DNA from: a virus | DNA: 57,091 nucleotides | Direction: 5' to 3' (one strand) | IMG/VR virus record: IMGVR_UViG_3300018915_000004 | Location: 1 to 57,091 of that record | In this document: one piece after another, positions 9,584 through 57,091 of the stretch | Layout of the letters: each line of letters opens with the position of its first letter | Numbering within the stretch: position 1 is the stretch's first letter | The notes under the pieces: model-generated | Database searches by the model: none | What the model saw: only the letters and a program-made list of their open reading frames with translations | Told to the model about the DNA's origin: nothing | Translations under genes and position numbers: made by a program

Positions 9584-9593
9584 AGTATAACAC
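9584..9593 (-). promoter_or_regulatory. extended -10 decamer GTGTTATACT
   Basis: Exact decamer on the - strand, 9 nt downstream of motif copy 5 and upstream of gene 9163..9522. Confidence 0.7.
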
Positions 9594-12370: not shown

Positions 12371-12380
12371 AGTATAACAC
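12371..12380 (-). promoter_or_regulatory. extended -10 decamer GTGTTATACT
   Basis: Exact decamer on the - strand, 5 nt upstream of motif copy 7. The predicted TSS falls at the motif edge. Confidence 0.65.
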
Positions 12381-12882: not shown

Positions 12883-13944
12883 TTAGCCCAAATTCTTAAG
12901 GGCAAGCAATCTCACGAATTCAGGCGATACAGCATAGCCAAAACCAACACCCGCGATCGCGGGTACATCGGGATACTGAAACCAATCAGGGAAGCCACAG
13001 ATCCGGCGTATGTGAGAGAGGTTAAGCGTCTTCATCTCACCTCGGATCATTGCGTCCATGAAATACCAACGGTTAACCAAGACGTTATGATCGTTGGGTT
13101 TGCGGTCTGTAAACATCATTCTGATTATTGTTGGCGCTACCTCAAACGCTGTTCTGATCTTATGTTCGCCGCCGTGGTACGCTTTGCGCTCAATCAGTAA
13201 AGTGCTGCTATCCTCTCCAAAATGGTATTGATGAGCTTCAATTGCAACCTCTTGCCCTGGCAACAGGCGATCGCTTGGCAACTTGCGGAACGGCAGATCG
13301 CCGCAAGCCTCATACCATCCATAGCGGCGCGTAGGTGTTGGGAAGTACCACGGCTTAAGGTCTGCTTTCCAGGCTAGCAACCAATACCTGATCCGATCTT
13401 GTGCAATGCCGTAATCAGCCATGTTGACGATCCTATGCTGGTAAAGATAGCCGTTATCATCTAGTGTCCTGTAAAGGATCTTTGCTCCCTCGCTATAAAC
13501 AAACGCGGCAACCTGTTCAACCGTCACAACTTCAGGAGCGATCGCTTCTATGCCTGTTGAGAAGCTTTTTACATTACTCACATCTCCCTCAGTCTCACCT
13601 GTGCTGTGAGTATTGACGTTGCTCAAGTTCGAGCAAACAGGCGATCCGTGATACCAGTAAACTGAGCCACGTTCAACCATGTCGAAATTACGCGCCGCTG
13701 CTTCCTGAACTGTTATTAAATGCGATGTGTGACCGTAGCGCCCATAATTAAGCTCTTGAATCTTGCCAAACTCCTTAGAGAGGATCGGTTTTCTTGGATC
13801 AAATTCAATGCTACCTAGGGGAGTAACAAGATCACTCATTAACGCGCCTGTCTCAACGCCGCCTAGACCGCTAAAAGCAGTTAAAAGGGTGATAGGGCGT
13901 TTTATGTTTGCGGAAGGTCTAGAGGCTTTTAAGGAGGCAATCAT
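12883..13944 (-). CDS. DNA (cytosine-5) methyltransferase
   Basis: Motif I LLTAFSGLGG, motif IV GSPVCSNLS (catalytic Cys), motif VI TVEQV, motif VIII QDRIRYWLLA. Confidence 0.8.
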   Translation of the reverse strand: MIASLKASRPSANIKRPITLLTAFSGLGGVETGALMSDLVTPLGSIEFDPRKPILSKEFGKIQELNYGRYGHTSHLITVQEAAARNFDMVERGSVYWYHGSPVCSNLSNVNTHSTGETEGDVSNVKSFSTGIEAIAPEVVTVEQVAAFVYSEGAKILYRTLDDNGYLYQHRIVNMADYGIAQDRIRYWLLAWKADLKPWYFPTPTRRYGWYEACGDLPFRKLPSDRLLPGQEVAIEAHQYHFGEDSSTLLIERKAYHGGEHKIRTAFEVAPTIIRMMFTDRKPNDHNVLVNRWYFMDAMIRGEMKTLNLSHIRRICGFPDWFQYPDVPAIAGVGFGYAVSPEFVRLLALKNLG

Positions 13945-16133: not shown

Positions 16134-16143
16134 AGTATAACAC
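16134..16143 (-). promoter_or_regulatory. extended -10 decamer GTGTTATACT
   Basis: Exact decamer on the - strand, 39 nt upstream of ATG 16095. Overlaps the edge of motif copy 10. Confidence 0.7.
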
Positions 16144-23825: not shown

Positions 23826-24634
23826 GGGTCTATGAGCGCATCCTCCCCCAAGCGTTGATCCTCTGGGATCTCTTTTCCCTCAGCGATCGCCGCTTCTTGC
23901 TCTTGATGCTTTTTGAAATTGTCTTGCCACTCTTGCCGCGCCTCTACCCTGTCCTGCTCAGCATCGGCTTGAGCATCAATCACGGTCTGAAGATTCACCC
24001 CAAACAAGCGCTTGGATAGATCGGATGTTCGGCTAGTGTTTTCAGCTAGCTCTACCTCCATTGAGTCGAGTTCGTCATTTAAGCGATCGCTATGCTTAAG
24101 CCTTGCAATGAGCCGCCCTGCCGAATCTGCCTCGATCAGACGCTCCTCTCGCTGGTAGCCTCTCAGGGCGTGTAACTCCTCCTCCCTGGTAAAGCAAGAT
24201 AGGTCAAGATCCTTAACTAGCTGTTGCGTTACCCCTGCCGTCTTAGCAATGCCTCGAACTTCTGAGAGGGTTAAGCGGCGTGTCTCAGTTGCGATAATGT
24301 CGCCGCCCTTGGGTTGCTCTTGACTGTCCTGTGTTGCGGGTTGTGTTGCCTCTTGTTGTGGAGCAGCAGCGGCAAGCTTAAGGGTTGTGTCTCGCCCTTG
24401 CTTAGTTGCGAGTAGTGCGTCTACTTTGTCTTGAGCAATGATTGTTGTTGATGCGCTGTCAACGGCGATCGTAACTTTCATACGCTTGAGTAAAGGGATC
24501 GTCTCTTGCGTTGATAAGTTGAGTTGATCGGCTAACCATCCCAGCGAGTTGATCGGGTAAACTTCTTGTGTTGCGGTTTTTGGCGTTGTTACTTCTGTCA
24601 CGGTTTGAATCCCTCCAGTATTTCTTTTATCCAA
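23750..24634 (-). CDS. hypothetical protein
   Basis: 294-aa ATG ORF with acidic, coiled regions. Confidence 0.6.
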   Translation of the reverse strand: MDKRNTGGIQTVTEVTTPKTATQEVYPINSLGWLADQLNLSTQETIPLLKRMKVTIAVDSASTTIIAQDKVDALLATKQGRDTTLKLAAAAPQQEATQPATQDSQEQPKGGDIIATETRRLTLSEVRGIAKTAGVTQQLVKDLDLSCFTREEELHALRGYQREERLIEADSAGRLIARLKHSDRLNDELDSMEVELAENTSRTSDLSKRLFGVNLQTVIDAQADAEQDRVEARQEWQDNFKKHQEQEAAIAEGKEIPEDQRLGEDALIDPWETARQNLSELGGKRTSKLKRRAS

Positions 24635-25146
24635 TCGATCTGATCTATGGGTATATTTTTAGATTTTGCCCAAACGTAGGGATCAGAATGTTTTTTGCTT
24701 GTATTGCATTTAAGGCAAGCTGGAACAATGTTATACAGTGCGTGATCTCCACCTTTAACTAAAGGGATAAAATGGTCTATTGTTAGATTCCCTTTGCACC
24801 CACAATAGGCGCAGCAGTTAGCAAACCATTCAAGCAACTGATTCCATTGATGTTCGCTCCACTCTATTACAAATGCCTTCCTGACACGAGCGCGACGCTT
24901 ACAGGAATGTTGTCTGTTTTGTTCTCTGTGGGCAACCCTGTAGTTTTTGCTCCATACGCGCCTATACTCTTTTTCTTGTAAACAATAATCCTCCTTCTGC
25001 TTGAGTATTCTGATTCTATTTTTCTCGTAATAAAAGCGCTGCCTTTTTATGTGGCAGTTCACACAACGGTTATCGCTTAAATACCTCAAAGTCAACTCAC
25101 AGCGCTTACATGGCTTACCATTATGGGTTTTAACTTGGTTGCTCAT
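24598..25146 (-). CDS. HNH endonuclease (paralog 1 of 3)
   Basis: CAYCGCKGNLTIDHFIPLVKGGDHALYNIVPACLKCNTSK plus an N-terminal CKRC..CVNC. Start trimmed to ATG 25146. Confidence 0.85.
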   Translation of the reverse strand: MSNQVKTHNGKPCKRCELTLRYLSDNRCVNCHIKRQRFYYEKNRIRILKQKEDYCLQEKEYRRVWSKNYRVAHREQNRQHSCKRRARVRKAFVIEWSEHQWNQLLEWFANCCAYCGCKGNLTIDHFIPLVKGGDHALYNIVPACLKCNTSKKHSDPYVWAKSKNIPIDQIDWIKEILEGFKP

Positions 25147-25603
25147 AACGCTTGTTAAGTGCATCCCTGACAAATAAATGATCATTCCAATCACGCATTA
25201 AAAAGCCTATTTCTTGAAGTAATTCGGCTTGTCGTGTCATGAGTGGCAATTTATCAGGCTTTACTTTTTTCCTCACTGGGTACGGAATACCAGCTTTTTC
25301 AGCCGCGCTTATTGCGGCTATTTCCTCAGCCAGATCCGCCCAGTATCGCGGGTATCGTTCCAAACAGATGCTCTGATACTCTTTCAACTCTTCAAAAGCA
25401 ATCTCTCGATACCTCATCAGGGCGTGATCAGACGCGCCCAAGCCCAAAAGCTTAAAACGGCTTTTTAGAAAGTTAATAGTTACCCATCTTGGATAGGGTA
25501 AGTTCTTTAGTTCGTTATCCGCCGCGATCGCGCCTTGAGCCGCCTTGAGAGCGTCGTCAATCGAGAGGCGCGTCACGGTTGCTTCATACAGCGCGATTGT
25601 CAT
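25130..25603 (-). CDS. hypothetical protein
   Basis: 157-aa ATG ORF. Confidence 0.6.
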   Translation of the reverse strand: MTIALYEATVTRLSIDDALKAAQGAIAADNELKNLPYPRWVTINFLKSRFKLLGLGASDHALMRYREIAFEELKEYQSICLERYPRYWADLAEEIAAISAAEKAGIPYPVRKKVKPDKLPLMTRQAELLQEIGFLMRDWNDHLFVRDALNKRYEQPS

Positions 25604-28445: not shown

Positions 28446-28455
28446 GTGTTATACT
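28446..28455 (+). promoter_or_regulatory. extended -10 decamer GTGTTATACT
   Basis: Exact decamer, 28 nt after motif copy 18 and 67 nt upstream of ATG 28523. Confidence 0.7.
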
Positions 28456-28522: not shown

Positions 28523-28810
28523 ATGAGAATGGCAAAACTCAAGGATTTTATGAAACCTCGCAATCAAGCAAGATACAAAGCAATTTTGAAGCTGGCAGCG
28601 CGGCAAGAGGGCGTTACTAGGCACGAAGCGATCGCCGCCTTAGGATCGCCTAACTCAACCGTTGATGCAATGCTTAAACGGCTGTTGGATGAGGACAGGG
28701 CACTTACTTACACGTTTGAAGCGCGATCACTCTCAGCTTGGCGCGGCGTTTCCTGCCAGAAAGAAGTCAGGGTTTATAGACTTGCTAAGATAGGAGCGCC
28801 GCTGCCATGA
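28523..28810 (+). CDS. small winged-helix-like DNA-binding protein (tentative)
   Basis: 95 aa. ..QEGVTRHEAIAALGSPNSTVDAMLKRLL..VYRLAK has a helix-turn-helix plus wing pattern. Confidence 0.45.
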   Translation: MRMAKLKDFMKPRNQARYKAILKLAARQEGVTRHEAIAALGSPNSTVDAMLKRLLDEDRALTYTFEARSLSAWRGVSCQKEVRVYRLAKIGAPLP

Positions 28811-28853
28811 TTTAACAATCGTTTCAGCTTGCTGTTTTCATGTCATTGTTTTA

Positions 28854-28889
28854 GCCCTCAATCCCTACAAGATAGAGGGCGTTTTTTTT
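28854..28889 (+). terminator. rho-independent terminator
   Basis: GCCCTC, a 15-nt loop, GAGGGC, then G followed by T8. Confidence 0.7.
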
Positions 28890-30387
28890 ATGCAGGTTTA
28901 GAGCGCTGTTGTTGCCTCATCTCTTCAAGCTGTTTTTTGAAATCTTCAGGCATAGGCGATCGCTCAACTGTACCCTTAGCCTGATTATTGCCTGAATCAG
29001 GGCTAGGCGCTCCCTGGACAGGCGAGGCAGTGTTTTGTGAGCAATCCACCACGGAGGCACTAGAGGCGGCTTGCTGCTGCTGTAATTTGCGGAAGCGATC
29101 CGCGTCCGTTTGGGCGGCTATCTCGTGATCCACCTGTGAGCCGCCGCCTTTTTTGTTCGCCCTTGCGATCGCTGCTTGCTTGAACTTCTCAGGGTTGCTC
29201 ATAAACTCTTGCCATTCATCAACGCTTAGACACAGGGATTGCCATTTTGTTGGATCTTTCTCGTAACTCCTGATCGTGTCTGCTGCTTTTTTGGTTGCTT
29301 GCTCATCGTTCCAATAGCGCCAAGCAAAAAACTTAAGGAAGCCACGATCAAGATCGTTGCAATGTTGCCCAAGGATTCTACGGGTTTTAGTCCTGTAAAG
29401 GTAGATACGATCGCACATCACGCGATCCGCAAGTGCTTGCAATTCCTCTTGGGTATATGTTCCCAGGTTGTCACCATTGCCGTATGCCTCCTCTAACTCA
29501 TCTATCCTCTGTTGCCCTACCAGGAACCGAGGCGCTTTAGTATTGTTATCACGCGCTGCCTCGGAACCTTGATCTAATGAATCAATAAGGCTGTTACAGA
29601 CAGTGTAAGTATTGTTATCAAGATCGCCCAAATTTGGGACGGCTTGAGAATTGCGATCGCTTGCTTCCGGTTGCTCCAACTCCAAAACTTCTACTTCAAC
29701 GGATTGGCTTTGTGTGTGTGTGTCTGACTCCTGCGCGCGCGCGTTAGTCTCACTCAAATGATCTAATTTAATTTGATCTTTTTTTGTTTCTTCTATATAG
29801 ATGAACGTGCCATTTTGTGTACCTTCGATAGTGCCATTTTGTGTACCTTCGATAGTGCCATTTTGTGTACCTTCGATAGTGCCATTTTGTGTACCTTCGG
29901 ATTTTTCCGATAGTGCCAATTCTGGTACTATCGGATTTTGCGTTGTTTCAGCCATTACAGCCTCTAAAATCAACTTTCCAATAGTCTCAGGATTGGGTCT
30001 GTAAAATTTTGTTCGATTCCAGCTTTTTACTACACATTGTGCTGAAATGACATAATTCGATTTTTCTAAGTCAAGCAATAAGCGTTGCAGCGATCGCTTG
30101 CTTCCGAGCGCTGGGTAAATTTGCGCCCACTGTTCGTACGTTGCTGCTGTCCACCATTCGCCATCCTGAAAATAATGTGTTTTGCCATGCAATGCGTTGT
30201 ATTGGCACCAGTCTTCTATGACCTCTACAAACAGAGCTTGATTAATCCCTATCTTGTTTGCGACCTGCCAGATTAACTTTGTGTACTTGAGTCGATGCAA
30301 TGTCTTGTACGCCGCGATCGCTGATGCTGTTGAAATAGTGTCTTGCGATGCTGACGTATTACGTGTTATACTTTTTCTCAATTCCAT
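28888..30387 (-). CDS. replication initiator-like protein (N-terminal HTH) containing in-frame iteron repeats
   Basis: N-terminus ..IGINQALFVEVIEDWCQYN...DGEWWTAATYEQWAQIYPALGSKRSLQRLLLDLEKSNYV resembles DnaD/replisome-organiser type HTH domains. EGTQNGTI occurs four times. Confidence 0.5.
   Translation of the reverse strand: MELRKSITRNTSASQDTISTASAIAAYKTLHRLKYTKLIWQVANKIGINQALFVEVIEDWCQYNALHGKTHYFQDGEWWTAATYEQWAQIYPALGSKRSLQRLLLDLEKSNYVISAQCVVKSWNRTKFYRPNPETIGKLILEAVMAETTQNPIVPELALSEKSEGTQNGTIEGTQNGTIEGTQNGTIEGTQNGTFIYIEETKKDQIKLDHLSETNARAQESDTHTQSQSVEVEVLELEQPEASDRNSQAVPNLGDLDNNTYTVCNSLIDSLDQGSEAARDNNTKAPRFLVGQQRIDELEEAYGNGDNLGTYTQEELQALADRVMCDRIYLYRTKTRRILGQHCNDLDRGFLKFFAWRYWNDEQATKKAADTIRSYEKDPTKWQSLCLSVDEWQEFMSNPEKFKQAAIARANKKGGGSQVDHEIAAQTDADRFRKLQQQQAASSASVVDCSQNTASPVQGAPSPDSGNNQAKGTVERSPMPEDFKKQLEEMRQQQRSKPA
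29620..29645. promoter_or_regulatory. 26-bp quasi-palindrome copy 19 (inside rep coding sequence)
   Basis: AAGATCGCCCAAATTTGGGACGGCTT, encoding AVPNLGDLD. On the - strand TACACT lies 12 nt downstream. Confidence 0.75.
29807..29930. repeat. four 24-bp direct repeats plus a degenerate fifth copy: candidate iterons / origin
   Basis: GTGCCATTTTGTGTACCTTCGATA at 29807, 29831, 29855 and 29879 (last copy diverges at its end). Flanked by an AT-rich tract at 29757-29800, (TG)6 at 29711-29723 and (GC)5 at 29733-29743. Confidence 0.75.
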
Positions 30388-30581
30388 TGCTTTGATTGTC
30401 TGTGATCCGCCGTAGCGGTAGGACTCACGGCGGTTGTGTACAATGCCCTCTCCTCTGATTTGCTACTCTGGGAGAGGGCGCAACTTTTTGCGGGATGCTT
30501 ACCTACCAGCAGCCCTCAAAAAACTTTAGATTAATTACCTAGCGGAAATATACAGGGAATGTACGGATCAAGGGTGTGATA

Positions 30582-30770
30582 TTAATCACCCTGGTTTTTG
30601 AGTTTTCTCAGTAGCTCATCTACCGCAAGTTGTAGCAGCCCTTGATTGTTGACTCCTAGTTGCTGTTTTAACGCCTCAACTTCTGATACTTGTTCTGCTG
30701 GAACTCTCCAGCCAAGGGTAGGGCGCTTTTCGTTAAATCGGTTGTGCTTGGTGTCACTGTAACTGTTCAT
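30582..30770 (-). CDS. ribbon-helix-helix (CopG/Arc-like) protein
   Basis: 62 aa. A beta-strand segment TLGWRVP is followed by two helices, AEQVSEVEALKQQLG and NQGLLQLAVDELLRKL. First gene of the operon containing rep. Confidence 0.55.
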   Translation of the reverse strand: MNSYSDTKHNRFNEKRPTLGWRVPAEQVSEVEALKQQLGVNNQGLLQLAVDELLRKLKNQGD

Positions 30771-30771
30771 G

Positions 30772-30783
30772 GTCGCTAGCGAC
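30772..30783. promoter_or_regulatory. 12-bp perfect palindrome next to the RHH start codon
   Basis: GTCGCTAGCGAC, 1 nt upstream of ATG 30770 on the - strand. Confidence 0.6.
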
Positions 30784-30815
30784 TTTAAGATATAAACAAT
30801 CTTCTATAGGGTATC

Positions 30816-30838
30816 CTGTCAAGTGTTATACTGTCAAG
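30816..30838 (+). promoter_or_regulatory. rightward early promoter: GTGTTATACT bracketed by the direct repeat CTGTCAAG x2
   Basis: CTGTCAAG-TGTTATA-CTGTCAAG. The decamer is at 30823-30832. On the - strand each repeat reads TTGACA. ATG 30861 lies 28 nt downstream and is preceded by AAGAGG. Confidence 0.7.
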
Positions 30839-30860
30839 CAGTTATTAAGAGGCGATCGCA

Positions 30861-31289
30861 ATGGCAAAACCATCAGGGCATTTAGGATCAGTAGTCAGTA
30901 TGAGCGCCGGACATTTTGGATCGACTATTAACGGATTAAATCAGCCGATCTTCATTCCTTGCTCTGTGTGCCAGCAGGGAGGTAAGCAGGTAGAGGCTTA
31001 TTGGCTGAATGAGGAGACAGGGGCGCGGCTATGTGAGCAACACTCGCAAGGCTATCTGAAAGTCAAAAACCATCCTGTCACCAAGTTTTGTTGCAATTCT
31101 TGCCCTGATTCCTTGCCTGACTGGGTAAAAGAGGAGATGAGGATCGGTGAGTTAATTTACTTTGTTGTTGACACTGGCAACCGCGATCTAGTGGAAACGC
31201 TAGAGGGCGAGTTTGATCCGCCTGTCAGTCTGCCTGACTTGCTCGACTCTTACGGGTTTAATTCGGTACATATTATTGAGGAGGGCTAA
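30861..31289 (+). CDS. hypothetical Cys-rich protein
   Basis: 142-aa ATG ORF with CSVC...CEQH...CCNSC. Confidence 0.65.
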   Translation: MAKPSGHLGSVVSMSAGHFGSTINGLNQPIFIPCSVCQQGGKQVEAYWLNEETGARLCEQHSQGYLKVKNHPVTKFCCNSCPDSLPDWVKEEMRIGELIYFVVDTGNRDLVETLEGEFDPPVSLPDLLDSYGFNSVHIIEEG

Positions 31290-33253: not shown

Positions 33254-33741
33254 TCGGGTTGCTCCTGTTGCTTTTGCTTCTCTTTAGATAGTATCGTACT
33301 TTCTCCTAAAGATGCAACAAATTTGAGACATCTTTCCTCTACCTCTTTTTGTTCCAGCGCTGATTGATATCTGGCAGTTAGTAAACGTTGCTGTAACTCT
33401 AGCCGCGCTGCTTCTTTTTCTTGGTTAATCCTGATGATTTCCAGATCTGCCGCTATCTTCTGCTTAATGTAAAAATCGTACTGCCAGAGCAAGAAGCGGA
33501 TTTTCCGCCGTGGGTGTTGGATAGCATCAAGTAATCGAGTATTAAAACGCCAGATTGCCAGATTGACTCTACCCATAGGCGATCGCCAGAATTCTTTTAC
33601 ATCTTTGCAATTGGTTGCTTGGATCTGTGTCTTGCCTGGATGTGTTTCTATCCAAGCTTTGAGCGATCTTTCCTCATCTAATTGCCCAGACCATGTTAGA
33701 GCGTCGATCAGTCTCCATTTAGTTTGTACATTCTGATCCAT
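33250..33741 (-). CDS. hypothetical protein
   Basis: 163-aa ATG ORF. Contains motif copy 21 near its 3' end. Confidence 0.6.
   Translation of the reverse strand: MDQNVQTKWRLIDALTWSGQLDEERSLKAWIETHPGKTQIQATNCKDVKEFWRSPMGRVNLAIWRFNTRLLDAIQHPRRKIRFLLWQYDFYIKQKIAADLEIIRINQEKEAARLELQQRLLTARYQSALEQKEVEERCLKFVASLGESTILSKEKQKQQEQPE
33290..33299 (-). promoter_or_regulatory. -10-like GTACGATACT
   Basis: The GATACT hexamer lies 13 nt downstream of motif copy 21 and 36 nt upstream of ATG 33253. Confidence 0.5.
33309..33334. promoter_or_regulatory. 26-bp quasi-palindrome copy 21 (inside coding sequence)
   Basis: AAGATGCAACAAATTTGAGACATCTT. Identical to copy 5. Encodes RCLKFVASL. Confidence 0.85.
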
Positions 33742-34367
33742 CTTTCTATTCCTTTTGTTACTGCAATAAAGGCAATTTGTTCAATAGAGAAAAAGTCTTG
33801 ATTTTCATACCATGCTAAAGGATGTAAATCGTTCTTTGAACTATTGCAGCGAACACAGGCAGGGACTAAGTTAGATAAAGCGTGATCGCCTCCTCTACTG
33901 ATTGGGTAGATGTGATCTAGTGTTAGCTTTTGACTTGATCCGCAGTAGGCGCAAGTATTGCCAAATTCAGCAAATAACCTGTCTATGTCTTCTTTTAAAA
34001 TTGTTTCTAACTTTACTTTTCTTGTCCGCGATCGCCTTGCTTGAGAATTTAGCCGCCCTTGTTTTCTCGATTTTTCTAAATCTTTTTGGTATTGCCGTTT
34101 CTTTTCTTGTTTTTGCCGAACCGGATCGCTTTTTCGCCTAGCTCTCATTTGCTCTGTTTTTCTGGCTCTTATCTCTGGCTGAGATTCGTATGCTTTCTGC
34201 TGTACCTTTAGCCGTTCTATGTTTGCGTAGTAATAGTTAATTGAGCGCTCTCTGTTGCAGTCTATACAGCCGTCGTTGTCACTTCGTCTTAATCCCTGAT
34301 GCCCTCTTTTGCAAGGATTCCCTAAATACCATAAACCTGAAACAATGTTGGGGTGATCTGCGTCCAT
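33708..34367 (-). CDS. HNH endonuclease (paralog 2 of 3)
   Basis: CAYCGSSQKLTLDHIYPISRGGDHALSNLVPACVRCNSSKND plus an N-terminal CKRGH..CIDC. Confidence 0.85.
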   Translation of the reverse strand: MDADHPNIVSGLWYLGNPCKRGHQGLRRSDNDGCIDCNRERSINYYYANIERLKVQQKAYESQPEIRARKTEQMRARRKSDPVRQKQEKKRQYQKDLEKSRKQGRLNSQARRSRTRKVKLETILKEDIDRLFAEFGNTCAYCGSSQKLTLDHIYPISRGGDHALSNLVPACVRCNSSKNDLHPLAWYENQDFFSIEQIAFIAVTKGIERWIRMYKLNGD

Positions 34368-36717: not shown

Positions 36718-36729
36718 CGCTATAGGGTC

Positions 36730-36743
36730 AAGTATGGCACTAT
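36730..36743 (+). promoter_or_regulatory. 14-nt element AAGTATGGCACTAT (copy 2 of 2)
   Basis: 27 nt upstream of ATG 36771. Confidence 0.5.
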
Positions 36744-36770
36744 CGAGGATCATTCGTTGCACTTGACCCT

Positions 36771-37301
36771 ATGACTTACAACAAGTATTCAACAGCCCTG
36801 GCAACGCCTATTTATCAGGCGTTGCTAGCATTAGAAACCCTGACACCCAAGCAGGAGTTGACTCAGGTAATAGAGTTTGATTTCTTGCCGCCGACGCTCA
36901 ATGACCTGTTACGCGCTGGTAAGGGTGAAAATGGGCGATATATGCTCTCAGAGTGTAAGCGGGTTGCCCAGGCGAGGGCGATCGCCTGTATTAAGCAGCA
37001 AGGGATTAAACCTTACTCAGGTAGAGTCTGGCTAGAGTGTTGTTGGTTTACAAGCTTTCAGCATGACCATGACAACCTTGTAGCAGCCCTTAAAGCGATC
37101 CTTGATGCTTTGAGTGACCTCAACATTATTATTAATGACAACCTTCAAGCGATCGCCGCGCCGCCTCTCCACTGGCATGAAAAGCTAGGCAAAGGAGAGG
37201 AGGATCATGTAACCCTTGTTTTGAGCAACACGCCGCGACACAACATAGAGCGCTATAAGCTTTATTTAGATGCGCTAACTGATGCTCTAGACTCTTTCTA
37301 A
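36771..37301 (+). CDS. RusA-like Holliday junction resolvase (tentative)
   Basis: LPPTLNDLLR...HDHDNLVAALKAILDALSDLNIIINDN parallels the RusA PPS.N and D.DN..K...DAL....DD blocks. Confidence 0.5.
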   Translation: MTYNKYSTALATPIYQALLALETLTPKQELTQVIEFDFLPPTLNDLLRAGKGENGRYMLSECKRVAQARAIACIKQQGIKPYSGRVWLECCWFTSFQHDHDNLVAALKAILDALSDLNIIINDNLQAIAAPPLHWHEKLGKGEEDHVTLVLSNTPRHNIERYKLYLDALTDALDSF

Positions 37302-46773: not shown

Positions 46774-47475
46774 ATGAACATAGAGCAGTTACTAGCATTG
46801 CTTGGGACGATTGAGGCAGTAAGTAAAGACACAATCGCGGGTATCCGTTCCGCTTATGAAGCAGCAACACGGGAAAGTGAGACGTGGAAAAAGAGGGCAG
46901 ATAAGGCAGAAGCCTCAGTTACCCGACTTAATGAGTTGATCGGCGGTTCTGATAAAGATGCTAAGACAGCATTAGAAGATCTGCAAAAGAAAATTACAGA
47001 CTTGACGGCTGAGCGCGATCAGTTCAAAACTAAGAGCGAGTCTTTGGAAGCGGATATCAAACGCGCCCAAAAGCTTGATCAACTGGGTGCGATCGCTGCC
47101 AAGGCAGGAATTGATCGAGAGGGATTAGCAACAGCGATCAAGGCAGGGTTGCTCCCAGAGGATAAAACGGTTGTTGTGGGAGAGGGCGACGCGGCAAAAA
47201 TTCAGGTAGACGGCAAAGATATTAAGGAATTTTTGAAAACTCAGCCGTTTCTTGAGAGGGCGCTGATCGTCCCTCCTGCCAATGGTAGTGATCAAGGCAA
47301 CCCAGACGCTAACACCAACAATGGACAACTACAGCCTCAAAATCAACAGCAAACGCCTACGGGAGGGCAACAGCAACAAACACCCACAGCAGGAACAAGC
47401 GGCGGCAATGCTGGCAAAAATCCAATTCTAGGGGCGATCGCTGAACTAGGGTTCAAAGTTCCAGGGGTGAAGTAG
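46774..47475 (+). CDS. scaffolding protein (GP20-like)
   Basis: 233 aa. Coiled-coil N-terminus, ..GIDREGLATAIKAGLLPED..IQVDGKDIKEFLKTQPFL.., and a Q/G-rich tail. Positioned before the capsid genes. Confidence 0.6.
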   Translation: MNIEQLLALLGTIEAVSKDTIAGIRSAYEAATRESETWKKRADKAEASVTRLNELIGGSDKDAKTALEDLQKKITDLTAERDQFKTKSESLEADIKRAQKLDQLGAIAAKAGIDREGLATAIKAGLLPEDKTVVVGEGDAAKIQVDGKDIKEFLKTQPFLERALIVPPANGSDQGNPDANTNNGQLQPQNQQQTPTGGQQQQTPTAGTSGGNAGKNPILGAIAELGFKVPGVK

Positions 47476-47643: not shown

Positions 47644-47672
47644 AGTATAACACTTATTAGGTTGAGAGTCAA
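47644..47672 (-). promoter_or_regulatory. strong sigma70-type promoter: TTGACT - 17 nt - (GTGT)TATACT
   Basis: Exact decamer at 47644-47653 on the - strand and a -35 TTGACT at 47667-47672. It points away from all neighbouring genes. Confidence 0.7.
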
Positions 47673-47741: not shown

Positions 47742-48200
47742 ATGCCGACACCTAAGCAAGTGATTTTTGGCGAGTTCGACAAGACCGATCCGAACTGGCT
47801 ACAAAGTAAAATCACAGATCCTAAGATCACTATCCCAGGCGGCGTTAGACTTGCGATCGCCTCTTTTAACGTCGCTCCCTATTTGCAGGAGGACGGGCGC
47901 GTGTTTGTTCCAGGCGGTACGGCGATCGCTAGGTCTTACGTGGATCGAGCAAATAACACAGGCTATCAGCTTTTAACTGATGCCTTGGCTGTTGCTGTCC
48001 TTGCAGACCCTACAGCCTATGAAGTTGCTGTAACCCTACATGATCGTTGGGACATTAAGGACGAAAACCACGCTGATGGGGTACAACCGAGGGCAGGAAA
48101 TCTCATTCTTGAGAACTTCTTGCCCAACTACCCAACACTTACCGCAAATCAGCTAAAAGTGCTGAGAAGCAACTATCAACTAATTTTGGGGCGCGAATAA
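47742..48200 (+). CDS. hypothetical head protein (in the position of a decoration protein)
   Basis: 152-aa ATG ORF between the scaffold and major capsid genes. Confidence 0.5.
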   Translation: MPTPKQVIFGEFDKTDPNWLQSKITDPKITIPGGVRLAIASFNVAPYLQEDGRVFVPGGTAIARSYVDRANNTGYQLLTDALAVAVLADPTAYEVAVTLHDRWDIKDENHADGVQPRAGNLILENFLPNYPTLTANQLKVLRSNYQLILGRE

Positions 48201-54635: not shown

Positions 54636-57091
54636 ATGGCTGTTGATGTAAGAATTCAGGTACAGTTACAGGATTTGACCGCCGCCGGATTTCAGGCAAT
54701 GGCGGCAAACTCCCGCGCCGCTTTTAACTCAATGCAAGGCGGTATTGCAAGGATGCAAGGGGCATCAGGGAGAATAACCGCAACAGGACAGGATCTTGCC
54801 CAAACAGGGTTGATGATTGCCGCGCCTATTGTTGGCGTTGGTGTTGCAGCGGCGCGGGAGGCGATCGCCGTTGAGTCAGCTATGGCAGATGTTAACAAGG
54901 TTTTGGGGCGATCTGAGTCGCAAATGGCAGGAGTAGAGCAAGGGATTATAAACCTATCAACCCGTGCCAAGGATGCTCTGCCCCTGCCTGTTGTCGGCTT
55001 GGCTGATATTGCGGCGGCAGGTGGATCGCTTGGGATTTCCGCCAAGGAGATTTTAGGGTTTACAGAAGTTACGGCAAAAATGGCGACCGCTTTTGACATG
55101 ACTGCTGAGCAAGCAGGAAGCGCGATCGCAAATATGCGGAACGTCTACAGCCTTGATTCTAAAGGCGGTGTAACTGAGGTCACTCAATTAGGGGATACGG
55201 TCAACACGCTTAGCAACAACATGGCGGCGCGAGCGGGTGACATCGTTGAGGCGATGACCAGGATCGGCGGTACTACTCGCAACTTTGGATTAGCCAAGGA
55301 ACAATCAGCCGCGCTTGCTGCTTCAATGATTGCGCTGGGTAACGCGCCTGAATTGGCGGCAACAGCCATTAACAATATTTTGCCAGCGCTTCAAGGCGCT
55401 ACAGGTCAAACCAAGCGCTTTAAAGAGGGTTTGGCAATGGCAGGTATTAGCGCCGAGGGTATGTCCTCAATGGTTCGGAAAGACGGCGTAGCTGCAATTA
55501 ATACTCTACTCATTTCCCTTAACAAGCTAGAGCCACAGTCAAGGACGCTAGCCATACAAAAAATGTTCGGCGCGGGTATTGATGCTCGTGTACTGGCAAC
55601 GCTAAGCAACGACGCTGGACAGTTTGCCAGAGCGCTAGGACTTGTTAGCGATCGTGGCAAGATGGCAGGGTCAATGCAGCGAGAATTCGAGATCCGGGCA
55701 GCGACAACTGGCAACAGCCTGATCATCATGAAAAACAACCTAACGGCAATGGCGATCACGTTAGGCAAGATACTTCTACCGACGATTAATCAGCTAGTAA
55801 GAATTATCAATCCTATCCTTTCAGGAATAGCGGCATTTGCTGAAGCTAACCCAGGCTTAACACGCTTGATTGTCACTGGGCTAGCTGTAACAGCCGCTTT
55901 TGGTGGGTTGCTCGTGATTGCTGGCAGTTTGGTGTTTTTTGCAGGGCAAGCCATTGGAGCAATCGCAGGTATCGCGGGCGCAATTGGTTTTGTTGCTACA
56001 GCCGCGACAGGTGGAACGGTTGCGGTTGGCGGTTTGGTTGCCTCAACAGGGGTAGGAGCGGCGGCGGTTGCTGGCGGCGCTGGTGTTGCTTTTTCCGCTC
56101 TGGCAGCGGTTGCTCTCCCTCTTGGCGTGTTGGCGTTGGGCGCTTTCTTGTTAATCAGGAATTGGCGCAAAATTCCCGCCTTTTTCTCTGGGCTATGGTC
56201 TGCGATCGCAAATAGTAGTAAGGCGCTGTGGGCTGGCTTAATTTTAGGATGGCGAACTGTTACAAGCGAGATTGCCAGATCAAGAAATGTTGTTGTTTTT
56301 GATACTGAAACAGCAACAGGACAAACCAAGCAATTTAGGCAAGGTCTGGCAATGGCAGGTATCAGCGCCGATCAAATGTCCTCAATGGTTCAAAAGGACG
56401 GCGTAGGCGCGATTGATCGCTTGATTGATTCTCTTGATGACTTGGATCAAGCGTCTCGCAGAGTAGCAATAAAAAAGATCTTTTTTTCTGGCAATGATAC
56501 TCAAGCCGTCTCATCGCTAGGAAGTAGCGCGGCTCATCTTTCTACAGCGTTTAAATCAGTTGGCGATCAAGGAAAAGTTGCCGGATCAGTGCAACAAAAA
56601 TTTGCTATCAGTGCATCAACAACAGCGATCGCAACCGCAAGACTAGAGAGCAATCTCGCGTCAATCTCTCTTATTCTGTCAAAAGGTATAATTCCTGCAC
56701 TCAATCAACTGGTAGCAATGATTGATCCGGCTGCTGCTAAGTTGTCAGCATTTGCCGAAGCTAACCCAGAGGTAACAAAACTAGCTATAGGCGCTTTAGC
56801 TGCTGTCGGCGCTTTTGGTAGCTTGTTTGTTATTGCTGATAAAGTTGCTTCTCGCGTTGCGGGAATGTTTGCGCCCATTGAACCCGCTAAGGCAGCAATT
56901 GACAAAGCAACAGCCTCAGCATCAAAGGGCGCTGTGTCGGCTGCTAAGTTCGCCTACCAGGGCGCTGAGGCGTTTGTTTCCATAGGGTTGATTACTACCG
57001 CCCTGGCTGCTGTAGCGGGTGCTACGCTGCCTATATCTGCAATCGTCGGCTTGGCTGTAGGCGCTTGGTTGGTGGTCAAGAATTGGCGGCA
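54636..57091 (+). CDS. tail tape measure protein, N-terminal part (runs off the window end and continues at base 128)
   Basis: Hand-translated from ATG 54636 with no stop through 57091 (MAVDVRIQVQLQDL...AMADVNKVLG...). Absent from the ORF track because it has no stop inside the window. The - strand ORFs across this span are shadows. Confidence 0.85.
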   Translation, partial: MAVDVRIQVQLQDLTAAGFQAMAANSRAAFNSMQGGIARMQGASGRITATGQDLAQTGLMIAAPIVGVGVAAAREAIAVESAMADVNKVLGRSESQMAGVEQGIINLSTRAKDALPLPVVGLADIAAAGGSLGISAKEILGFTEVTAKMATAFDMTAEQAGSAIANMRNVYSLDSKGGVTEVTQLGDTVNTLSNNMAARAGDIVEAMTRIGGTTRNFGLAKEQSAALAASMIALGNAPELAATAINNILPALQGATGQTKRFKEGLAMAGISAEGMSSMVRKDGVAAINTLLISLNKLEPQSRTLAIQKMFGAGIDARVLATLSNDAGQFARALGLVSDRGKMAGSMQREFEIRAATTGNSLIIMKNNLTAMAITLGKILLPTINQLVRIINPILSGIAAFAEANPGLTRLIVTGLAVTAAFGGLLVIAGSLVFFAGQAIGAIAGIAGAIGFVATAATGGTVAVGGLVASTGVGAAAVAGGAGVAFSALAAVALPLGVLALGAFLLIRNWRKIPAFFSGLWSAIANSSKALWAGLILGWRTVTSEIARSRNVVVFDTETATGQTKQFRQGLAMAGISADQMSSMVQKDGVGAIDRLIDSLDDLDQASRRVAIKKIFFSGNDTQAVSSLGSSAAHLSTAFKSVGDQGKVAGSVQQKFAISASTTAIATARLESNLASISLILSKGIIPALNQLVAMIDPAAAKLSAFAEANPEVTKLAIGALAAVGAFGSLFVIADKVASRVAGMFAPIEPAKAAIDKATASASKGAVSAAKFAYQGAEAFVSIGLITTALAAVAGATLPISAIVGLAVGAWLVVKNWR
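56965..57091. repeat. terminal overlap, identical to 1-127
   Basis: See feature 1-127. Confidence 0.9.

Follow-up and report, generated by a model that had tools for sequence, protein, structure and literature searches.

In the 57,091-nt sequence of IMG/VR virus record IMGVR_UViG_3300018915_000004 (positions 1 to 57,091; this whole stretch is called the window here), the gene for a 499-aa protein, rep, holds within its coding region four tandem 24-bp repeats (iterons), a palindrome carrying the same core, and an AT-rich tract. The locus is probably a theta-type phage replication module in which the initiator gene contains its own origin. An in-gene origin of this kind, with phage lambda as the parallel, had been proposed in a preliminary description of this DNA, and the proposal is well supported by the layout of the locus in relatives, by predicted structure, and by conservation of the repeat core. 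The arrangement as such is already known from lambda O and from RepA_N replicons. The Rep family is unannotated, and no description of it in cyanophages or Nostoc plasmids was found in the searchable literature. The principal features of the locus are the following.

28888-30387, minus strand: rep, 499 aa, with a winged-helix N-terminal domain, a disordered linker and a helical C-terminal domain
29941-30330, minus strand: region coding for the N-terminal winged-helix domain, aa 20-149
28891-29520, minus strand: region coding for the helical C-terminal domain, aa ~290-499
29906-29935: 30-bp palindrome with 13-nt arms (12 of 13 complementary) and a 4-nt spacer
29807-29902: four 24-bp iterons
29757-29806: AT-rich tract, candidate DNA-unwinding element
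29711-29722 and 29733-29743: (TG)6 and (GC)5, in which purines and pyrimidines alternate, close to where the exchangeable cassette has its distal edge
29663-30360, minus strand: specificity cassette, exchangeable as a unit and made up of the N-terminal domain, the iterons, and the AT tract; limits from blastn breakpoints and alignment

Using Tandem Repeats Finder, the head-to-tail repeats noted previously were recovered at 29807-29899 (period 24, 3.9 copies, 100% matches, score 186), and this array is the strongest tandem repeat in the genome apart from the 33-bp repeats of the tape-measure gene (577-1048). Units 1 to 3 are identical (GTGCCATTTTGTGTACCTTCGATA), and unit 4 (29879-29902) deviates in its last 3 nt. 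They are translated in frame as 8-aa repeats (aa 164-195 of the 499-aa open reading frame [ORF]), reading EGTQNGTI three times and then EGTQNGTF, rather than EGTQNGTI four times as first described. A degenerate fifth copy had also been reported; its core is present (CGATAGTGCCA, 29908-29918), but it lies at an offset of 34 instead of 24 nt and forms the left arm of the 30-bp palindrome, TCCGATAGTGCCA-ATTC-TGGTACTATCGGA. The palindrome arms hold the junction core of the iteron repeat, with half-sites that match at 11 of 12 positions, and the palindrome is a full dyad form of the iteron core and probably the site to which a Rep dimer would bind with high affinity. Each iteron, as read on the gene strand, consists of a weak half-site (CGAAGGTAC) and a strong one (TGGCACTATCG) with an A4 tract between them, and adjacent sites overlap by TCGA. 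With the shared TCGA ends included, the unit reads TCGAAGGTACAC-AAAA-TGGCACTATCGA, the halves of which match at 7 of 12 positions, and it is identical at 20 of 28 positions to the palindromic site (CCGATAGTACCA-GAAT-TGGCACTATCGG on the gene strand). From its sequence, the array is best described as a chain of semi-palindromic sites, in each of which a strong half and a weak half flank a central A-tract. Allowing at most one mismatch, the core CGATAGTRCCA occurs at 7 sites in the genome versus 1.06 expected, five of which are at this locus (four direct, one inverted). Array and palindrome together (29807-29935) encode aa 153-195, within a stretch predicted to be disordered (aa 150-290).

The AT-rich tract previously pointed out beside the repeats is 80% AT, compared with a genome mean of 52.6%, and of all 40-bp windows in the 57-kb genome, those at 29742-29818 are the richest in AT (0.825); only one other cluster reaches 0.80. 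At least three phased repeats of ~17 to 24 bp, an AT-rich element, and a candidate initiator in cis, which are the generic attributes of an iteron theta origin, are all found here. The tract contains two GATC sites, which were discarded as evidence; they are uninformative because the cyanobacterial octamer HIP1 (GCGATCGC), present in 124 copies, brings GATC to 11.3/kb across the genome.

To compare the layout across the family, 19 loci sharing the N-terminal domain were scanned, comprising Nostoc, Anabaena, Nodularia, Komarekiella, Tolypothrix, and other genome contigs plus one IMG/VR contig. The absence of repeats from homologues had been named as grounds for doubt; instead, 18 of the 19 carry a period-21/22 array of ~3 units, starting at the same position, right after the N-terminal domain, and its core is conserved as DNA. 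These arrays are often extended by 42/51-bp composite units with the same core, and two further complete Nostoc plasmids also carry 21/22-bp core repeats at the same position. A tract of 75 to 82% AT lies 2 to 46 bp downstream of the array in 19 of 19. Common to the arrays is a hexamer core, ATAGT[G/A], which is almost absent elsewhere in each 5- to 8-kb locus. It is read as ATA-GTG (I-V; "IVP" or "IVQ") at 37 sites, as aAT-AGT-Gat (N-S-D) at 25 sites, and on the opposite strand (G/V-T-I) at 10 sites, the units of the window among them. As the core is kept in three coding registers, selection acts on the DNA and not on the peptide, and the family offers a clean natural example of such selection on binding sites embedded in coding sequence. 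Nostoc units have the form ATAGTGCCA-AAAAA-TGGatggc, with the strong half on the opposite side from that in the window, and in gene orientation the Nostoc-type iteron corresponds to one arm of the palindrome, ATAGTACCA, which is translated as IVP. A description of the window units as simply inverted relative to those of Nostoc was replaced by one in which both are semi-palindromic A-tract sites differing in which half is strong.

Iteron types map exactly onto the clades of the N-terminal domain, and when the core changes, so does the motif predicted for the recognition helix: ...QRLLL is found with GTGCCA, ...QKRLL with TCACTA-A-TAGTGA, and ...Q(H/N)LLL with GTGCA. This covariation is supportive and not proof, because the contrasts are few and phylogenetically linked. 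At the other extreme of divergence, a sibling genome (L001) shows 0 mismatches to the window over 21,452 bp, the sole difference being a 48-bp gap that corresponds to two iteron units in place of four; by this comparison the array is mutationally hot, with two units tolerated.

The N-terminal domain and its repeats are also exchanged as a unit. Locus L002 is ~91% identical to the window over a 62-aa gene upstream of rep, the gap that follows it, and the first rep codons, and again from ~29662 on, while the ~700 bp between these breakpoints (window positions 29663-30360) have been replaced as a block. The N-terminal domain of L002 is different (HTH_36, 2.8e-5; PHROG "replication initiation O-like"), as is its array of 5.9 24-bp units (GGCGGAAAACCGCC) with GGCGG-AAAA-CCGCC, and the cassette brings its own ribosome-binding site and start codon. 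In L025, a C-terminal domain 45% identical to that of the window is joined to a third N-terminal domain, with a 21-bp array of three units at the equivalent place. The C-terminal domain is 45 to 86% identical in P0002, P0160, and P0161 despite their different N termini. In this family, N-terminal domain and iterons are exchanged jointly, as a module. Searches of the metagenome and viral collections scanned yielded nothing for further C-terminal-domain relatives or for the iteron 30-mer.

Three smaller observations concern the cassette borders. In L002, the ancestral rep start (ATGGAATTGAGA...) persists at 1262-1336 as a 24-codon upstream ORF, the TGA of which is just ahead of the new start codon, and the latter has a strong AAGGAGG ribosome-binding site imported with the cassette. 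The alternating tracts (TG)6 and (GC)5, reported at the outset and present as described, are prone to form Z-DNA; the (GC)5 and (TG/CA)6 tracts (29711-29743) are kept in L002 (~1880-1925) beside the unrelated cassette, where similarity resumes. An exact 17-nt direct repeat (GCGATCGCTTGCTTCCG) occurs twice within rep, at 29653-29669 and 30090-30106. Such HIP1-containing repeats may be recombination points, since the copy at 29653-29669 sits where the exchange seen in L002 has its distal breakpoint.

The suggestion that the N terminus of Rep is an initiator-type helix-turn-helix (HTH) is upheld by its AlphaFold2 (AF2) model, a winged helix at aa 20-149 (pLDDT ~80-90) made up of helices and a beta-hairpin wing at aa 113-131, and by a PHROG initiator match. 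Residues 150-290, including the repeat-encoded stretch, are disordered in the model, and aa ~290-499 form low-confidence helices. For Rep aa 40-171 there are matches to a DnaD-like PHROG (4e-5) and, more strongly, to PHROG 11233, "replication initiation protein" (1.3e-8); phrog_11233 and phrog_6493 are the only PHROG matches. Using Foldseek, the structures 4pql, 4pt7, and 5kbj were found at or near the top of the PDB matches to the N-terminal domain, over 108 to 128 of ~130 residues, with TM(target) of 0.50 to 0.56, a probability of 0.94 to 1.0, and weak E values of 0.04 to 0.16; MarR/PadR folds score alongside them. Going by PDB titles, 4pql and 5kbj are presumably the same staphylococcal RepA proteins as 4pt7. 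The structure 4PT7 is cited among those of staphylococcal pSK41/pTZ2162 RepA (PMC7145576). Among BFVD viral models there are 15 fold matches at an E value of ≤1e-3, and several among the matches listed are named as phage replication or replicon-initiation proteins. With Rep aa 1-150 as the query, exhaustive HMMER searching retrieved 1425 cluster representatives. Almost none of 91 sampled family members carries a Pfam domain, the few found being DnaB_2, DnaA_N, Cdc6_C, or HTH_36, and 0 of the 91 match PF06970. NCBIfam matches of Rep to FliH covered the repeat/linker region only, far under cutoff, and were set aside.

Linkage to a replicative helicase was found on plasmids. In three complete plasmids from Nostoc (42.9, 44.1, and 31.8 kb), the gene directly upstream of dnaB encodes a Rep homologue annotated only as "hypothetical protein," and the examined regions of these three contain no other annotated initiator. 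The plasmids are CP031942.1, pCENA543b (CP023282.1), and unnamed7 (CP151106.1). Directly upstream of the homologue, pCENA543b and CP151106.1 carry an RHH_5 gene (5e-11 and 4.5e-6, above the curated cutoff), whereas the small genes at this place in CP031942.1 encode an HTH_26 protein and an unassigned ORF, with no ribbon-helix-helix (RHH) gene. These modules share with the window the N-terminal domain (48 to 55% identity), the succession of winged HTH, ATAGTG-core array, and AT tract, and, in pCENA543b and CP151106.1, a small RHH or RHH-like gene upstream. They differ in having another C-terminal domain, dnaB directly downstream, 21-bp units (plus the 42/51-bp composites), and the core on the other strand relative to the gene. 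A function can thereby be put forward for a family of "hypothetical proteins," apparently the initiators of several 30- to 45-kb Nostoc plasmids.

Among known systems, a RepA_N (pSK41-type) theta replicon is a closer analogue than the pMV158 type named in the preliminary description. In pSK41, the Rep N-terminal domain binds four Rep boxes located centrally within rep, the central region encoded by the origin is a dispensable linker, the C-terminal domain contacts DnaG, and an antisense RNA, RNAI, targets the rep leader (PMC5703833). In pPR9, a PF13730-type domain has taken the place of the N-terminal domain and origin (~500 bp), the C-terminal domain and the control region upstream being kept, and the outcome is a compatible replicon (PMC5703833). 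The iterons of RepA_N replicons are repeats of semi-palindromic form with inverted arms converging on a poly-A tract (PMC7145576). The replicons of this family (pSK41, pSK1, and pTZ2162; PF06970) and the module in the window have several traits in common: possibly an N-terminal DnaD-like winged helix, for which theirs is the best PDB fold match here but a statistically weak one; iterons placed centrally in rep and encoding a linker, ahead of a variable, lineage-specific C-terminal domain; iterons that are semi-palindromic around an A-tract (the window unit and GGCGG-AAAA-CCGCC of L002); an antisense RNA with two stem-loops against the rep leader, a candidate only in the phage; and cassette exchange of the N-terminal domain and origin, in which the C-terminal domain and the control region upstream stay in place. 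The incoming domain of pPR9, PF13730, is the family that the N terminus of L002 matches just below the Pfam cutoff (PMC5703833, PMC7145576). Unlike the RepA_N proteins, the phage Rep has no PF06970 sequence match; the known replicons are plasmids of Firmicutes, whereas those here belong to cyanobacteria and a myovirus-like phage; and a pronounced AT tract beside the iterons, an RHH-like gene upstream, and, in the plasmid relatives, an own DnaB are peculiar to the present family.

In phage lambda, iterons and an AT-rich region lie in the initiator gene O, the N-terminal domain of which binds while the C-terminal domain recruits the helicase-loading partner. Among lambdoid phages the N-terminal domain and iterons covary, and the host replisome is used. 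The order of iterons and then AT-rich region inside an initiator gene is shared with the window, and the alternative N-terminal domain of L002 matches PHROG "replication initiation O-like" families. The N-terminal domain of the window itself, in contrast, matches no O-like model, and its iterons are perfect 24-bp tandem units instead of spaced 19-mers. No P-like helicase loader was found, the downstream ORFs (287, 118, and 215 aa) having no informative match in family scans. For pMV158 the gene order holds, namely, a small gene for a repressor of RHH type, then an antisense RNA covering the start of rep translation, then rep (PMC5703833). Its RepB, however, is an HUH rolling-circle nuclease with a double-strand origin outside the repeats, neither of which was detected here, and the analogy is superficial.

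From these comparisons we infer the following course of initiation. The Rep N-terminal domain (aa ~20-149), probably as a dimer, would recognize the core ATAGTGCCA/TGGCACTAT, occupying the palindrome at 29906-29935 first and then, cooperatively, the four iterons at 29807-29902. The resulting nucleoprotein array would destabilize or open the adjoining AT tract (29757-29806), and the C-terminal domain, independent of the cassette, may act as a replisome-recruiting domain that brings in helicase or primosome. This would be the host enzyme, since the phage has no recognizable DnaB, primase, or DNA polymerase among its proteins in family and PDB searches; the plasmid relatives carry their own dnaB directly downstream. 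The iteron-encoded stretch, as a disordered linker, would leave the DNA free to evolve as binding sites. The supply of Rep would probably be limited by an antisense transcript started at 30364-30372 (plus strand) and possibly also by the 62-aa RHH-like protein encoded upstream.

Several observations weigh against an in-gene origin with Rep as its initiator. No site resembling the DnaA box TTATCCACA (at most one mismatch) was found in 28800-31000. A period of 24 bp, in contrast to the 21 bp seen in relatives, does not correspond to whole helical turns, and the 100% identical units, together with two copies versus four, indicate that the array was recently expanded by slippage and that two units are evidently enough. 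The cassette of L002 lacks an adjoining AT tract. The profile search suggested for the 499-aa protein gave the DnaD-like PHROG (4e-5) but no Pfam family at an E value of ≤1, including RepA_N (PF06970) and phage O, and no meaningful NCBIfam family; the C-terminal domain has no family match. To these are added the weak E values of the PDB fold matches and the generic MarR/PadR winged helices that score similarly. The cumulative GC-skew minimum at ~29 to 31 kb is uninformative as origin evidence and was left unused, because it coincides with a switch in gene orientation.

The repeats might instead be Rep sites for control alone (autorepression, titration, handcuffing, or incompatibility), with opening and loading elsewhere, for example at 30388-30581 or 30771-30860. 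Iterons have such control functions in iteron plasmids, an isolated half-site over another gene start (36734-36746) suggests that Rep may also regulate, two units are tolerated in place of four, and both of these regions, the gap upstream of rep and the divergent control region, are highly conserved in L002. Neither region, however, is AT-rich or contains the core, whereas the AT maximum of the whole genome abuts the array and the layout of array and AT tract is kept family-wide; in pSK41, moreover, the in-gene Rep boxes are the origin (PMC5703833). We regard a role in control alone as unlikely, if worth keeping in mind. The idea of an array without function, generated by slippage in a tolerant linker and resembling iterons by coincidence, draws on the perfect identity of the units, the 48-bp indel as sole difference between two genomes, the predicted disorder of the linker, and the differences in repeat units among relatives. 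It is made quite improbable by the recurrence of the same hexamer core in three registers and both orientations, in arrays only, among divergent relatives, by the covariation of core with N-terminal domain clade and recognition helix, by the palindromic version of the core adjoining the array, by three unrelated N-terminal domains that each bring their own array, and by the AT tract that is always beside the array in relatives sharing the N-terminal domain.

It would also be conceivable that the 499-aa protein is a PadR/MarR-like winged-helix transcription regulator and the repeats are its operators. A profile of the N-terminal domain found only a PadR-type recognition helix and wing among PDB sequences (E ~1e-3), many Foldseek matches are MarR/PadR proteins, and one top BFVD match is named as a transcriptional regulator. 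Set against the initiator and DnaD-like PHROG matches, the adjacency to dnaB on three complete plasmids with no other annotated initiator in the examined regions, and the DnaB_2, DnaA_N, or Cdc6_C domains of some family members, such a regulator has slightly less to recommend it still and is very improbable; a length of 499 aa with a large C-terminal domain is atypical of PadR/MarR, and an array inside its own coding region beside the AT maximum fits an origin better than operators. A rolling-circle replicon of the pMV158 type (CopG repressor, countertranscript RNA, and RepB nickase) is suggested by the order of a small RHH-like gene, antisense promoter, and rep, which resembles copG-RNAII-repB (PMC5703833). 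We give it hardly any credence, as no Rep_2/HUH domain or nuclease family was matched in Pfam, PHROG, and NCBIfam scans, the N-terminal domain is a winged helix, and the homologues pair with DnaB helicase on 30- to 44-kb plasmids, as is typical of theta replication.

The region upstream of rep contains candidate elements for controlling the initiator.

30582-30770, minus strand: 62-aa putative RHH regulator, an ORF upstream of rep on the same strand
30343-30372, plus strand: likely antisense promoter, TTGCGA-18-TGtTATACT, a scan match pointing across the rep start codon
30379-30489, plus strand: candidate antisense RNA of ~105 nt, complementary to the rep start codon and leader
30772-30838: divergent control region with candidate operators, including a perfect palindrome (GTCGCTAGCGAC) abutting the start of the 62-aa gene
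9584-9592 (minus), 12371-12379 (minus), 16134-16142 (minus), 28447-28455 (plus), 30364-30372 (plus), 30824-30832 (plus), and 47644-47652 (minus): sites of the 9-mer TGTTATACT

The 62-aa protein had been described as an RHH protein in the same operon as rep. The ORF and its strand are as stated, but no RHH hidden Markov model matched the protein, no Pfam family was found at an E value of ≤10, and no fold match is significant. The only PHROG match is to a family of unknown function (E = 0.03). Its AF2 monomer has helices at 25-38 and 43-61, the N-terminal stretch ahead of them being unmodelled (pLDDT 63), and the Foldseek matches all have E values of ≥1.1, although at least 6 of 10 are RHH proteins (Arc, NikR, and omega). 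A homology search recovered only its own copy and that of L002. The position of the gene upstream of rep matches that of the RHH_5 genes of two Nostoc plasmids. That the protein is an RHH regulator is thus weakly supported, and an RHH operon with autoregulation is plausible, judged from sequence. A structured 194-nt gap (30388-30581), with two strong stem-loops, separates the 62-aa ORF from rep, so that a shared operon is only a possibility; as the gap has no sense-strand terminator, transcription could read through from the 62-aa gene into rep.

The 9-mer TGTTATACT, an extended -10 element, occurs at 7 sites in the window versus 0.24 expected. Six of the seven have a TTGnnn -35 element at 16 to 19 nt, and five sit 28 to 67 nt upstream of same-strand starts. 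Its overrepresentation, the -35 elements, and the positions before start codons indicate a genuine promoter element and a promoter class of the phage. A promoter of this class directed across the rep start is likely, and its -10 element is conserved in L002. The RNA predicted from it has stem-loops at 30407-30433 and 30445-30479 followed by T5, folds at -44.2 kcal/mol (z -2.8), and is ~95% conserved in L002, with changes in the loops only; the region has no Rfam match. Where this RNA would end is uncertain, as 5 nt separate the stem from the T-run; transcription might instead continue, in antisense, across the 62-aa gene. The divergent region also has direct repeats, TAT(C/A)CTGTCAAG, at 30812-30823 and 30827-30838 and the rightward TGTTATACT promoter at 30824-30832, and it is conserved in L002. 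These repeats may act as operators.

One exact copy of a 13-nt iteron half-site (ATGGCACTATCGA) is located away from rep, at 36734-36746 on the plus strand; by our own estimate, the chance of such an exact 13-mer over 114 kb (both strands) is ~0.002. It occupies the 27-nt loop of a perfect 12-bp inverted repeat, ATAGGGTCAAGT/ACTTGACCCTAT (36722-36733/36761-36772), which overlaps the start codon of the RusA-like gene at 36771-37301. The inverted repeat (36722-36772) may be a Rep-responsive regulatory hairpin.

More tentatively, and with the odds against it, the module could be a portable, plasmid-type (RepA_N-like) theta replicon common to Nostocales plasmids and a tailed cyanophage, in which the cassette is swapped to escape incompatibility or initiator-targeted interference and an RHH protein and antisense RNA exert dual control. 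If true, this would extend the initiator architecture to cyanobacteria, the copy-controlled circuitry could allow the phage to persist as an extrachromosomal plasmid-prophage, and Rep might regulate other genes through isolated half-sites, such as that at the RusA-like gene start. The in-gene origin and initiator proposed above are a concrete, testable pair for an uncultivated cyanophage. The Rep/in-gene origin modules, with the small regulator genes upstream, could also provide minimal replicons when shuttle vectors are built for filamentous cyanobacteria, for which few replicons are available.

The window is a complete circular assembly of a ~56,964-bp genome, as judged from 127 bp that are identical at both ends (1-127 and 56965-57091); the tape-measure gene (ORF 24-1637) apparently runs on across the circle junction. 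Genes of a contractile-tailed phage are present (large terminase, portal, major head protein, tail sheath, baseplate, tape measure, endolysin, and RusA-like resolvase). A C5 cytosine methyltransferase is encoded at 12883-13944 (minus strand), and together with the HIP1 copies and the GATC density it is a signature of a cyanobacterial host and of methylation-related adaptation. Using blastn, no DNA match to the locus was found among 50,697 phage records, and the best terminase matches listed from the phage collection have ~29 to 32% identity; this uncultivated cyanophage has no close sequenced relative. Genes are oriented leftward from ~9.2 to 30.8 kb, followed by the divergent control region (30771-30860) and then a rightward block. 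The large unannotated proteins (704 and 621 aa) have no informative PDB or family match, and an Rfam scan of the window gave no match. Two other places were rejected as origins. The tape-measure array (577-1048), 13 degenerate 33-bp units, is a coding repeat of the tape-measure protein, as its units encode 11-aa repeats (AWAWVAASGNK-like), and a second AT-rich spot at 33962-34032 has no repeats and lies inside an HNH endonuclease gene (33708-34367, minus strand), one of two such genes, the other being at 24598-25194 (minus strand).

Near the rep stop codon, a hairpin (GCCCTC...GAGGGC) followed by T8 at 28853-28889 lies between rep and a convergent 95-aa HTH-like gene (28523-28810, plus strand), of which it is likely to be the terminator. 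The orphan TGTTATACT copy at 47644-47652 (minus strand) points leftward within the rightward structural block, between 46774-47475 and 47742-48200; with only tiny ORFs downstream, it may drive an antisense or small RNA. In Nostoc relatives, paired inverted heptamer arrays, (GGGTGTA)n and then (CTACACC)n, are found in the vicinity of the rep-dnaB junction, ~0.7 to 0.9 kb downstream from the iterons, and could together form a long hairpin.

L004, 2432-2556: heptamer arrays
L008, 5282-5409: heptamer arrays
L014, 4118-4273: heptamer arrays
L018, 5183-5319: heptamer arrays
L019, 3205-3341: heptamer arrays

Further downstream inside the Rep gene, an additional tandem array of 2.7 to 3.9 72-bp units is present in L010 (4745-4938) and L011 (4898-5178).

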